From a virus (lineage: Duplodnaviria; Heunggongvirae; Uroviricota; Caudoviricetes), in IMG/VR virus record IMGVR_UViG_2778261593_000006, positions 1 through 18,695 of that record: a DNA stretch of 18,695 bases; one strand, 5' to 3'. This document shows, piece by piece, positions 3,001 to 6,000 of the stretch (position 1 is the first letter of the stretch; every line of letters begins with the position of its first letter). Position numbers: made by a program.

Positions 3001-6000
3001 CACCCTGCGGCGTAACTCTGCCACTTCATCCGCCAGACTCATCACCGGTGCCCTCCGATTTCCAGATAAGACGATAATCCTGCTCATGTCTCTTGCCGGT
3101 TTCCGGTACTTTACCCAGCCAGACTTCCTGTAACGGCGCACCTGCCGGAACCGCAAACGGATCTTCGCCGACCGGAATGTCCTGTTCAAAAGAGACACGG
3201 AAAACGATGTAGTCGTCCAGCAGCCGGTCGAAGGTATCCACCTCAGCATCGATAAAAACCGCCGGATCAACGTTATCCAGCCCGAACGTGGCTCCCTCAA
3301 TCCAGTCAGATAAATCCATCGCGAGACAACGGGCAAAAATCTGCGGTTTTGGCACGTTTTCCGTCTTCCCGGCCCGGTCTGTCACCACAAACAGATCACA
3401 TTTCAGCGTGACCCGCGTTTGCCCGTCGGCAAAATGAGCCTTGTCCCAGCCCGGTACATCCACAAACACAGCAGGCGTCACCAGTTGCGTCACTTTTTCC
3501 GGGTACTCATCGGCATCTTCCACCCAGGGAATTTGTTTCAGACTGTCAATCACCGCCTGATGCCAGGCGCCCATCATCAATGGTTCCATCACTCCAGCCC
3601 CTTAAATACCCGGAATTTCAGTTCATGCTCAAAATTTTTCAGGATCAGTACTTCCGCATCCGGAAAAACAAAATCCTCTATACGGTTCAGCATGGCTTCA
3701 TAAATATCAATTTCCGCTTCACGCACCCTCCGTCGTCCGGATGTCTGTCGGATCAGTATCGTTTTCCTTTTTGATATACGTCCGTTACGATTTTCCGCTT
3801 CGAACTGGTTGATAAAGGCATCATCCGTTGACCAGGTGCTGACAGACAGGGATTCCCCGGCAGGTTTAAAACGGATCTCCCGTGCCTTCCTCCGGTGGGA
3901 AGCTGGTGCAAAACGCCCCCGCTCATCGCGCAACTGATGGCGTTCGCCGCGTCGTCCCCCACTGATGCGTCCGCGCAGATCGCGTACTTTGATGGCGTTC
4001 AGACCGAACCATACCTTCGCCTCATCAAACTCATCACCGTTACGACGAATGATAAAATTATGCAGAACACGCTTTTTGATCATTTTCTGACTGCGTGGGG
4101 CAACCTGTTTTTTAAACTCTGCCATAGCCTTCATCCGCAGTGCAGACGCGGCTCTTTTCAGCGCCACGCCCCAGGCTTTACGGATCTGACTTTTTGACCC
4201 ACCCAGTTTAGCGATAATTTTCAGCACCTCATCTTCATCAATATCGACGACGAGGTTTCGTGCCAGCCGTCGCTGCCGGGCACTGCTTCGTTCATGCTCT
4301 CTGACTGCCATAACGTTTACTCGGTCGTTCCGGTGCAGCAGGTGTATTTCTCCCGGGCTCTCCACGCGCAAGGGTGATGGTAATCACCCCCTGACCCGCA
4401 GTGCCTGACTCATCCCAGCCGGGATCGACTACCTGATAGGGTTCGCCGTGGATCATGACCCTGTCATATTTTTTCAGACCGGCGGCCCATGCGCTCCGGG
4501 TAAATAACACGGGCGCAGTATCACGAATTTCGCCGCTGCCAGTGTTCATCCCGGTGTTATCTGCCGGGGCATCAAAAACGGCACGGATTTTTCTTTCCGT
4601 GCCGCCCGGATATATGCTGATTTCCGTCCCCATCGTATCCAGGATGATGTCATCCGCATCACTCATGGCCTGATCGAACAGATTATCGAACATCATCACT
4701 CCCGGATTTTTTCTGCCAGACCGTCTGCCAGCAACGCGGGAACTGTGGCTTCATTAACCAGCACAACACTGGAGGCCCGGGCAAACATCAACATTTTTCC
4801 CGTCACAGCATCACAGGCTGGCATATGCGCCGTTTTCAGCATACGCACCCGGGCGAGTCCCTGCTCAGAATGCATTCCGTCGCCGGATGCATCGTTGCCC
4901 ACCTCTTCCTTCCCCGTCTCCTCCCCATCGAATCCGGCGGCCTCCTCCTCCCATTCCGCCAGACGCTGCTCGAGATCGGCTTTTGAACCTGAAATATCTG
5001 CTTCACGCCCCAGAATCACTGCCAGTTCCTGCAAACGTTCAGTCATCTGCTCTTTTGTCATCACATCTCTCCCGTGCGCTAAAGAAAAAGGCGGGAATAT
5101 CCCGCCTGACCTTATTTCACCTGAACCACCACAAACGCATCCGGATCCGGCAGCACCATCAACGGCGCAGACTGCGTCATGGTATATTCGCAACCAGGAT
5201 CCCCCACTTCCTCCCAGTGTTTCGGATAACGAATCGCAGAGGTGATCCCTTCACTCAGTGCCTGATTATCCTGAATGGCACCATAACAACGGACGCCTTC
5301 CGCCTGAGTGTTCCCCAGAATCAGTGTACCTTCCGGCAGATAACGCTGTTCATCCCCGTTTTCGTCAACATACGTTGTCTTCGCCACCACAATGGCCAGA
5401 TCGCCGTAATGGCCTTTAAAGGAAACCACGGAGCCCAGATCTTTCAGTGCCGTTTCCAGCTCAGATTTGGAGCCACGGCGGGTATCCAGTTTTTCACGGA
5501 ACAGTTTAAAACCGTTCAGCATACGCCAGACCGTGCCGTCCATAATCGCGATATTGATGGTGCCGGAAGCGAAATCGCAGTACGCATCCAGATCATGCGT
5601 CGGATCGAAGGTGTCAGCATTCTGCTGTGACCATTCGCGTCCGCCAGCCTGCGTAATGTTATTGGCGACAGAACGCCCAAAATCCACTTCCACCGTCTCA
5701 AACTGCTCGCCACTCATGGTGTATTTACCCTGCAGAACGGCACTGACCGCCTGCATTTCTTCCACCTGCACAATCGCCTGCTCTTCCTGTTTCAGGTTGT
5801 CCGTCAGAATACGCAGACGGCGGTAAGCCGGGTCATTAAGGCGGGCCGGATCTTCTCCCGGAAGACGTTCCACTGCCTGCTGATAATCAAAGCGGTGTTT
5901 TGGTTTTACATAACCGGGACGTAACACACGGGTTTCACCACCACGGCTGCGCAGCACTTTGCCTGACACCACCGGAGACACATACGCCGCAACCGGTGTT

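Follow-up and report, generated by a model that had tools for sequence, protein, structure and literature searches.

The region 3026–4311 very probably encodes the pair of neck proteins on the tail side in a temperate myovirus that combines head parts of the lambda type with tail parts of the P2/R-pyocin type. It lies within the 18,695-nucleotide stretch of viral DNA analyzed here (the window), which is part of a Stx2e-converting prophage of Escherichia coli with 99.9% identity to pig ETEC strains. The first of the two products, of 240 aa, is by its sequence a predicted tail completion protein (TCP) of the lambda gpZ family, and the second, of 187 aa, is a contractile-tail terminator or collar of the PA0615/Mu gp37 type.

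Gene Order and Junctions

All genes of the window are carried by the minus strand. Identified mainly by Pfam matches, they run in the order Nu1-A-W-B-C-D-E-FI-FII, the 240-aa basic protein, the 187-aa protein, and P2-type V-W-J-I-H (Table 1). The sequence-only reading had given the same order, which the Pfam and TIGR matches bear out, and its coordinates for the two ORFs at the seam, the first of them described as highly basic, are exact. That reading had also pointed to the DNA left of the window as a place to look for sheath, tube, and tape-measure genes, and a complete contractile-tail set is indeed encoded there: immediately beyond the window edge, within 10 kb and sharing the direction of the operon, are sheath, tube, chaperone (TAC), a candidate tape-measure protein (TMP), U, X, and D. 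The tail genes are thus arranged as collar-V-W-J-I-H-G-sheath-tube-...-U-X-D. At the other side of the seam, FII is 33% identical to lambda gpFII (E value 2e-12). Within H, a segment of 87 nt is 93% identical to the tail fibre gene of phiP27. As a megablast search of the phage collection returned only this fibre segment besides head genes of phage 21 and lambda, we rejected a phiP27-like prophage.

Table 1. Features of the window, with position, strand, and supporting evidence
Feature	Position	Strand	Evidence
Nu1	11859-12407	-	Pfam
gpA	9971-11887/11929	-	Pfam
gpW-type head-tail adaptor (head completion)	9758..9967	-	Pfam gpW PF02831, 4e-25
Portal, lambda gpB family	8190..9761	-	Pfam Phage_portal_2, 5e-96
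S49 protease/gpC	6584-8200	-	Pfam
gpD	6209-6544	-	Pfam
gpE	5112-6140	-	Pfam
DNA-packaging chaperone FI	4696..5061	-	Pfam Packaging_FI 1.5e-13; PHROG_92 1.4e-32
gpFII-type head closure/head-tail joining	4292..4696	-	Pfam Phage_attach 5.6e-13; PHROG_82 'head closure Hc1' 7.5e-30
Predicted tail completion protein (TCP/Neck1), lambda gpZ family, 240 aa	3589..4311	-	PHROG_27 2e-28
Tail terminator/collar, contractile type, 187 aa	3026..3589	-	PHROG_1072 5.7e-51; 6u5f_A profile match
P2-type baseplate spike/assembly protein V	2419..3042	-	TIGR01644 phage_P2_V 1.5e-19; PHROG_9992; 26% identity to P2 V
Baseplate wedge/sheath initiator W (gp25 family)	2029..2385	-	Pfam GPW_gp25 3e-15; 39% identity to P2 W
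Baseplate wedge J	1140..2054	-	Pfam Baseplate_J 3.5e-22; 40% identity to P2 J
Baseplate/tail protein I	557..1147	-	Pfam Tail_P2_I 1.6e-35; 37% identity to P2 I
Tail fibre H, N-terminal part, cut by window edge	1..560	-	RefSeq annotation, identical prophage L001 16932-18161; 32% identity to P2 H

The genes had further been described as all translationally coupled, and around the seam the four junctions do overlap: FI/FII and the 240-aa/187-aa pair share TGATG, FII and the 240-aa gene overlap by 20 nt, and the 187-aa gene and V by 17 nt. The description fails elsewhere, where gaps of 39 nt (C>D), 68 nt (D>E), 50 nt (E>FI), and 33 nt (V>W) separate the genes. Hairpin-plus-T-run elements are found downstream of D and of E.

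The 240-aa Protein Is Predicted to Belong to the gpZ Family

The 240-aa protein has a pI of 10.97, with 56 Lys and Arg residues against 33 Asp and Glu, and contains a predicted Arg-rich beta insertion. Its match to PHROG_27 extends over profile positions 4–194 of 199, and the same family is matched by lambda gpZ (3e-69) and by gpZ of phage WO (6e-33); P2 gpS and Mu gpG fall in PHROG_26. Neither junction protein gave a useful match when scanned directly against Pfam and NCBIfam, the Pfam scan of the 240-aa protein having none at E ≤ 0.1. A relative with 38% identity, P0082, passes the Pfam family Minor_tail_Z (PF06763) with 29.2 bits versus a threshold of 23.9, as does WO gpZ with 46.6 bits. 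Aligned with hhalign, the profile of the 240-aa family matched WO gpZ with a probability of 89% and an E value of 2e-6. The alignment to lambda gpZ, a single sequence and thus a weak template, was non-significant (E value 0.39), and an iterated HMM of the family scored lambda gpZ at 10.6 bits only. Searching the PDB sequences with the family profile produced spurious matches to designed repeats only, and a scan of IMG/VR for a diverse gpZ alignment returned only copies of the lambda protein that were 99–100% identical.

Position points the same way, and the architecture may do so. TCPs such as 80alpha gp51 fold into a long helix at the N terminus, a loop or beta region, and a second helix at the C terminus, to which gpZ adds a beta domain; the predicted arrangement of helix, beta insert, and helix agrees with that described for gpZ-type TCPs (bioRxiv 10.1101/2024.12.10.627806). 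The gene sits between FII and the terminator in 80/80 loci, and a place between the head-completion and terminator genes is the published criterion for a TCP (PMC11099176).

The 187-aa Protein Is a Contractile-Tail Terminator

The 187-aa protein has a pI of 4.3, and its start at 3589 is backed by the alignment of homologues. Its PHROG is common to the protein annotated as "Collar" in WO. As a single sequence it matched PA0615 marginally (E value 0.089), and the profile of its family of 133 sequences matched the PDB entry 6u5f_A, "Collar PA0615," with an E value of 7.9e-35 over residues 3–164 of 171. The AF2 model (pLDDT 92) gave the same answer at the level of the fold. Foldseek placed it with the R2 pyocin collar (6u5j/6u5f, E value 1e-7) and the Mu terminator (9khy_1, 5e-7), and also with the A-1(L) gp7 terminator, T5 p142, and lambda gpU, at a probability of 1.00; on the gpU structures 3fz2/3fzb/8iyd, the E value was 1e-4 and the TM score reached 0.75 on the target. 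When the two family profiles were aligned with hhalign to the single sequences of lambda Z, lambda U, P2 R, P2 S, and Mu gp37, which are weak as templates, the results were non-significant or marginal, the best being lambda U (E value 0.001) and Mu gp37 (E value 0.002) and confined to the N-terminal half. A profile search of genome contigs with a narrow collar alignment found 13 Enterobacterales loci and added little.

The pair had been thought to match nothing recognizable, a statement that no longer holds given PHROG_27 for the 240-aa protein and the PA0615 profile and fold for the 187-aa protein. The related claim that lambda Z-U has been replaced is wrong for Z, as the 240-aa protein is of the gpZ family, and the 187-aa protein has the position and the fold of gpU: position and order directly after FII are those of the lambda pair. 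The collar nevertheless differs from gpU in belonging to PHROG_1072 and not PHROG_37, in being ~55 aa longer, and in a conserved C-terminal segment (P162, G165, H168, D171, and Y172) that is missing in gpU; it must also terminate the sheath.

P2 offers another possible source for the two proteins. They could be orthologues of P2 gpR and gpS that were brought along by the P2 tail module, whose baseplate and tail genes are 26–40% identical to their counterparts in the prophage. The P2 order is R-S-(orf30)-V, with the functional equivalents just upstream of V: gpR is the P2 terminator and a reported PA0615 homologue (bioRxiv 10.64898/2026.09.14.750843), and gpS is listed as the TCP of P2 (PMC11099176), so that the functions are equivalent. 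Orthology is nevertheless improbable, and we rejected it: gpR and gpS fall in PHROG_65 and PHROG_26 versus PHROG_1072 and PHROG_27 for the window proteins, hhalign detected no significant match of either family profile to P2 R or S, and the window has its TCP before its terminator, which is the order of lambda Z-U and opposite to P2 R-S. The neck of P2 also has the adaptor gpL instead of W and FII (bioRxiv 10.64898/2026.09.14.750843).

Co-inheritance of FII, TCP, and Collar and the Position of the Seam

The block FII-Z-collar-V is found in 80/80 related viral contigs of IMG/VR and also around three distant collar homologues that were picked regardless of context, and of 5426 complete E. coli genomes, 78 have both junction ORFs conserved and 76 keep the block intact. 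FII-Z-collar occurs with several head types and with two tail gene orders, and the Z-collar pair is seen with different head types (loci L096 and L184 and phage yong2) as well as in phage WO. The comparison with L096 locates the seam. Nucleotide similarity to the window begins at window position 4375, inside FII, and the FII proteins of the two, 42% identical overall, differ hardly at all in their C-terminal 27 residues. Head and tail modules have their recombination boundary in the ~27 final codons of FII, and not in the two junction genes, where the sequence-only reading had placed the seam. Since head-module swaps have their breakpoint within the 3' end of FII, Z and collar travel with the tail, and FII-Z-collar is an old, functional, and co-inherited interface rather than a recent chimera.

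This bears on the role first proposed for the pair, that of lineage-specific adaptors which evolved to join a lambda head to a P2 tail that would otherwise not fit it. Both genes are annotated as "hypothetical protein" in RefSeq, neither product has a direct Pfam or NCBIfam match, and the 240-aa protein is unusually basic and, with its additional Arg-rich sequence, exceeds lambda gpZ by some 50 residues. Such adaptors are very unlikely, however, as both proteins are in known neck families, the same pair is present with different heads and in WO, and the neck already has four standard parts: the adaptor W, the closure protein FII, the TCP, and the terminator. The part of the proposal that stands is tail completion at the head–tail interface; the special adaptor function falls, since one protein is of the gpZ family and the other is a standard terminator. 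Homology of both proteins to lambda Z and U, named beforehand as an outcome that would speak against the proposal, was found for about half of what it comprised.

Relation to Known Phages and Tailocins

The FII-Z-collar-V block is already known, having been published in 2022 for Wolbachia phage WO, and our finding is real but ordinary. WO resembles the window in its gene order and in the lambda-type head upstream (gpA, gpW, lambda portal, gpC, gpD, and gpE); its gpZ and Collar belong to the families of the window proteins, and HHpred has likewise connected the Collar with Mu gp37 and the collar of R-pyocin. Of the WO-type connector/baseplate module, the window has all members in order except PAAR, no gene for which lies in the gap of only 33 nt between V and W. 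On the other hand, sequence identity is only about 30%, WO is without a detectable Nu1 or FI match, the strongly basic Z of the window is 70 aa longer than WO gpZ (240 versus 170 aa), and the hosts, Wolbachia and E. coli, are far apart.

FII-Z-collar-V is also present in the isolated temperate phages Valp1 (Vibrio) and yong2 (Hafnia). Together with Chris1 (Citrobacter), these have homologues of both junction proteins, with identities of 32–40% for Z and 35–52% for the collar, and stx is absent from all three. Valp1 carries a complete collinear set of lambda-type head and P2-type tail genes, and EM shows it to be a myovirus whose contractile tail measures 90 nm (PMC11054321). It differs from the window prophage in being a telomere phage, in its extra genes, and in a PAAR gene after V, whereas yong2 differs in its head, a ClpP-capsid fusion, and in its tail order, V-sheath-tube-TMP-U-X-D-W-J-I.

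The best profile and fold matches of the 187-aa protein are R2 pyocin PA0615 (6u5f/6u5j), with 21% identity in the structural alignment, and Mu gp37 (9khy). In pyocins the collar gene lies immediately upstream of the V homologue, by locus-tag order, and the tail order of the prophage presumably resembles the R-pyocin order PA0615-PA0628. With the collar closest to that of R2 pyocin, the tail half might be an R-type tailocin cluster, PA0615-like collar first, that came by chance to lie beside an unrelated head cluster. We consider this highly unlikely and rejected it: the tail genes overlap the head operon with no break; FII and the gpZ-type TCP, which are needed only for head joining and which pyocins lack along with the head, are inherited together with the collar at every locus; and Valp1, a relative, forms complete particles of the myovirus kind.

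Both junction ORFs are real genes and under purifying selection, with dN/dS values of 0.04–0.19 (0.04–0.17 for the 187-aa gene). Many E. coli prophages are defective, but that the junction should be a recent or defective recombination product with non-functional ORFs in a decaying prophage is extremely unlikely in view of these values, the block kept intact in the E. coli genomes and viral contigs counted above, the tightly overlapping gene junctions, and the homologous blocks in isolated, plaque-forming or EM-verified phages, and we rejected it. The sequence-only reading was right that the junction is neither recent nor inactive: the arrangement is functional and old.

Proposed Assembly of the Neck

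By homology to known collars, a hexamer of the 187-aa protein would cap the finished tube, lock the last sheath ring, and present the surface on which the head docks. The 240-aa TCP, if it behaves like gp51 of 80alpha, would be added after the terminator and lie inside the lumen of the neck. The filled capsid of the lambda type would be closed by gpW followed by gpFII, whose ring would dock on the collar. No special adaptor would be needed, because FII, Z, and collar are an old co-inherited interface. The stoichiometries, physical contacts, and order of assembly are those that we infer for this scheme, and by analogy the particle morphology and the locations of the proteins in the prophage would be those of its homologues.

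Implications for Contractile-Tailed Phages and Stx2e Prophages

Two head types were seen with the block, lambda E+D and protease-capsid fusions with ClpP or S78 proteases. It is possible, though we hold the view only tentatively, that the FII/TCP/collar trio is a portable docking standard for unrelated heads and, jointly with this, that the enlarged basic Z has an extra role. Recombination at one fixed site within the last ~27 codons of FII may then exchange the heads, and the pI 11 Z of the E. coli/Salmonella lineage may use its Arg-rich insertion to hold the cos DNA end or to replace a missing gpS-type protein.

The two neck proteins encoded by 3026–4311 are one more example of the published point that lambda-type head completion docks on contractile tails via FII-Z-collar, and module exchange at the 3' end of FII is part of that same, already published point. 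The main gain is in annotation, as names can be given to two "hypothetical protein" genes found in dozens of Stx2e-positive E. coli genomes: tail completion protein (gpZ family) and tail terminator/collar. Most characterized Stx phages have short or non-contractile tails, with few reported Myoviridae (PMC8065619). Our results indicate that the common Stx2e prophage at ompW/yciD should make contractile-tailed particles; were the trio a docking standard of the kind outlined above, this major class of Stx2e prophages would be contractile-tailed, unlike the usual short-tailed or siphovirus-like Stx phages. A contractile tail would matter for the host range of these phages and for how stx2e spreads among isolates from pigs and food.

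The head–tail junction

All genes discussed lie on the minus strand. The sequence-only reading had described a lambda-type head module joined to a P2-type baseplate, and its gene map was borne out by scans against Pfam, PHROG, and NCBIfam. The head genes comprise Nu1, the gpA terminase, gpW, a lambda-family portal, the S49 protease/gpC, gpD, gpE, FI, and an FII-like head–tail joining protein with 33% identity to lambda gpFII, and the baseplate side consists of P2-type V, W (gp25 family), J, I, and the start of H, 26 to 40% identical to their P2 counterparts. The two junction ORFs between them, 3589-4311 (240 aa) and 3026-3589 (187 aa), gave no match in the Pfam scan. 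The claim that all genes overlap held for the four seam junctions, with TGATG overlaps at FI/FII and 240/187 and overlaps of 20 nt at FII/240 and 17 nt at 187/V, but not for C–D, D–E, E–FI, and V–W, which are spaced by 33 to 68 nt.

The 240-aa protein, correctly described as strongly basic (pI 10.97), matched PHROG_27, "tail completion or Neck1 protein", at 2e-28 over almost the entire profile. The same family contains lambda gpZ (3e-69) and the gpZ of the Wolbachia phage WO, while P2 gpS and Mu gpG belong to PHROG_26 instead. Pfam Minor_tail_Z was matched by 6 of the 44 members of the 240-aa family, including above its gathering threshold a relative with 38% identity to the window protein (P0082), and the family profile aligned over its full length with WO gpZ (hhalign 89%, E 2e-6). 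The predicted structure (pLDDT 82) has long helices at both its N and C termini, with a beta-rich region between them.

The 187-aa protein matched PHROG_1072, of "unknown function", at 5.7e-51, and 373 representative relatives were recovered in an exhaustive profile search. The profile made from 133 of these matched a single PDB sequence, the R2 pyocin "Collar PA0615" (6u5f/6u5j; E 7.9e-35), the alignment running end to end and including the conserved C-terminal G-x-x-H-x-x-(D)-Y segment. A few family members also match Pfam Phage_Mu_Gp37, Phage_tail_terminator, and Tail_completion_gp17. The best Foldseek matches of the AlphaFold model (pLDDT 92) were the pyocin collar, the Mu terminator (9khy), the cyanophage A-1(L) gp7 terminator, the monocin cap, T5 p142, and lambda gpU. 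Together, the profile match and the predicted fold identify the protein as a terminator of contractile tails that has the gpU fold. Its sequence alone matches PA0615 at just E 0.089, which explains why the protein had looked unfamiliar. The RefSeq start codon of the collar is the ATG at 3577, for a product of 183 aa; aligned homologues starting M-(A)EPLLLG favor the ATG at 3589 (187 aa), whose overlap with the Z stop codon forms TGATG (site 3577-3592).

Conservation of the gene block

The order FII, Z, collar, V was found in all 80 loci with a 240-aa homologue returned by an IMG/VR scan. The genes downstream follow one of two arrangements: V-W-J-I-H-sheath-tube, which is that of the window, or V-sheath-tube-TMP-U-X-D and then W-J-I, which is that of Hafnia phage yong2. 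Three distant collar homologues, selected without reference to gene context, all showed Phage_attach (FII), a ~180-aa protein recognized by the Z-family HMM, and the collar, with V-W-J next wherever the contig extends. Among isolated phages, the block is present in yong2 and Vibrio phage Valp1; both junction proteins were also matched in Citrobacter phage Chris1 and E. coli vB_EcoM-569R10-type phages, and the collar only in a Burkholderia phage. Valp1 is a myovirus whose head measures 60 nm and whose contractile tail measures 90 nm (PMC11054321); it has the entire collinear lambda-type head and P2-type tail.

The closest described system is the connector/baseplate module of phage WO. The genes of that phage run gpA-gpW-portal-gpC-gpD-gpE-FII-"minor tail protein Z"-hypothetical-V-PAAR-W-J-I, and HHpred has tied its Collar to Mu gp37 and the collar of R-type pyocins (PMC9203015 S1 Text). 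The window differs in having no PAAR gene and a larger, more basic Z. The window pair is equivalent in position to lambda Z/U, the 240-aa protein belonging to the gpZ family and the 187-aa protein sharing only its fold with gpU. Functionally the pair is equivalent to P2 gpR/gpS, but sequence family and gene order both tell against its being a gpR/gpS pair.

Tail genes and proposed assembly

Of the sheath, tube, and tape-measure genes whose presence left of the window had been raised as a point to check, the first two are found there, along with a candidate for the third. Directly beyond the window edge, the annotated prophage copy carries the rest of H and a gene for fiber assembly as well as sheath, tube, a Phage_TAC_7 chaperone, a tape-measure candidate of 550 aa, gpU, X, and D, and thus encodes a complete contractile tail. 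The tape-measure candidate had no Pfam match and shows 38 to 39% identity to the same-position protein in yong2 and Valp1.

Judging from homologues, assembly most likely proceeds as follows. The tail would be built up from the P2-type baseplate, with tube and sheath polymerizing along the tape measure, and a collar hexamer would cap the tube and lock the last sheath ring, as in R2 pyocin, Mu, and, differently, P2 gpR. The gpZ-type tail completion protein (TCP) would then be added and, by analogy with 80alpha gp51, sit in the lumen touching the end of the tape measure and later that of the DNA, a role with which its strong positive charge is consistent. gpW and gpFII would close the lambda-type head, and the gpFII ring would dock onto the collar. 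Particles of lambda, SPP1, P2, and Mu that lack the TCP are noninfectious or unjoined (PMC11099176), so the same would be expected here.

Other features of the window

In the scaffold-like C-terminal part of gpC (gene 6584-8200), a unit of 138 nt (46 aa) is tandemly repeated in frame 3.7 times at 6711-7217 (79% matches; motif LPEAKGREQLAQ-LA-QPGMTV-QAK--LAAAPAA), and the number of copies might vary among relatives. The 481-position profile PHROG_2353, "major head protein", matches residues 1-314 of gpE (5112-6140) and, with positions 361-481, residues 1-121 of FI, whose frame (4696-5193) has no stop upstream as far as 5193 and so overlaps E at its 3' end; in some relatives E and FI are thus annotated as a fusion, or possibly expressed as one by frameshift. 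GC-rich hairpins, with T runs after them, come immediately after gpD (~6145-6208) and gpE (~5062-5111), e.g., GGCGGGATATTCCCGCC-TTTTTCTTT; these resemble partial terminators or stabilizers and could keep D/E expression high compared with that of the neck genes downstream. A low-GC island (12500-14100; 38 to 39% vs. ~54% elsewhere) between Nu1 and the lysis genes, whose ORFs 13062-13595 and 13692-14054 had no Pfam match, may be moron or cargo DNA beside the presumed cos region.

An Stx2e-converting prophage

The window (18.7 kb) is 99.9% identical to a prophage in the chromosome of porcine ETEC/STEC strains, e.g., ETEC1730; this prophage adjoins a truncated ompW (yciD) gene and encodes stx2eA/stx2eB. 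As both toxin genes lie within the window, it derives from an Stx2e-converting prophage.

Toxin and tRNA genes in the window
Feature	Position	Strand	Source or identity
stx2eB	16314-16577	-	RefSeq copy of prophage
stx2eA	16590-17555	-	RefSeq copy of prophage
Two tRNA genes upstream of stx2e	17640-17716, 17818-17893	-	tRNA-Arg(tct) and CAT-anticodon tRNA (RefSeq: Ile)

At the prophage end left of the window (8375-10425 of L001, the annotated RefSeq copy), D is followed by a second tail-fiber gene (prophage tail fiber N-terminal domain) and a DUF4376 gene, which may form a second receptor-binding set; beyond them, Rha- and Ash-family regulator genes lie beside the truncated ompW.

Of 5426 complete E. 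coli genomes, 78 contain the junction region (2400-4800), all copies being chromosomal. Nucleotide similarity to phiP27, the reference Stx2e phage, is confined to 87 nt of a tail fiber gene (window 1-87; 93% identity), and the prophage is thus otherwise unrelated to phiP27. Stx2e prophages at yciD/ompW have been cataloged before (PMC8705337), and the junction genes are still "hypothetical" in RefSeq; the gains are an improved annotation of these two genes and the implication of a contractile tail for this class of Stx2e phage.
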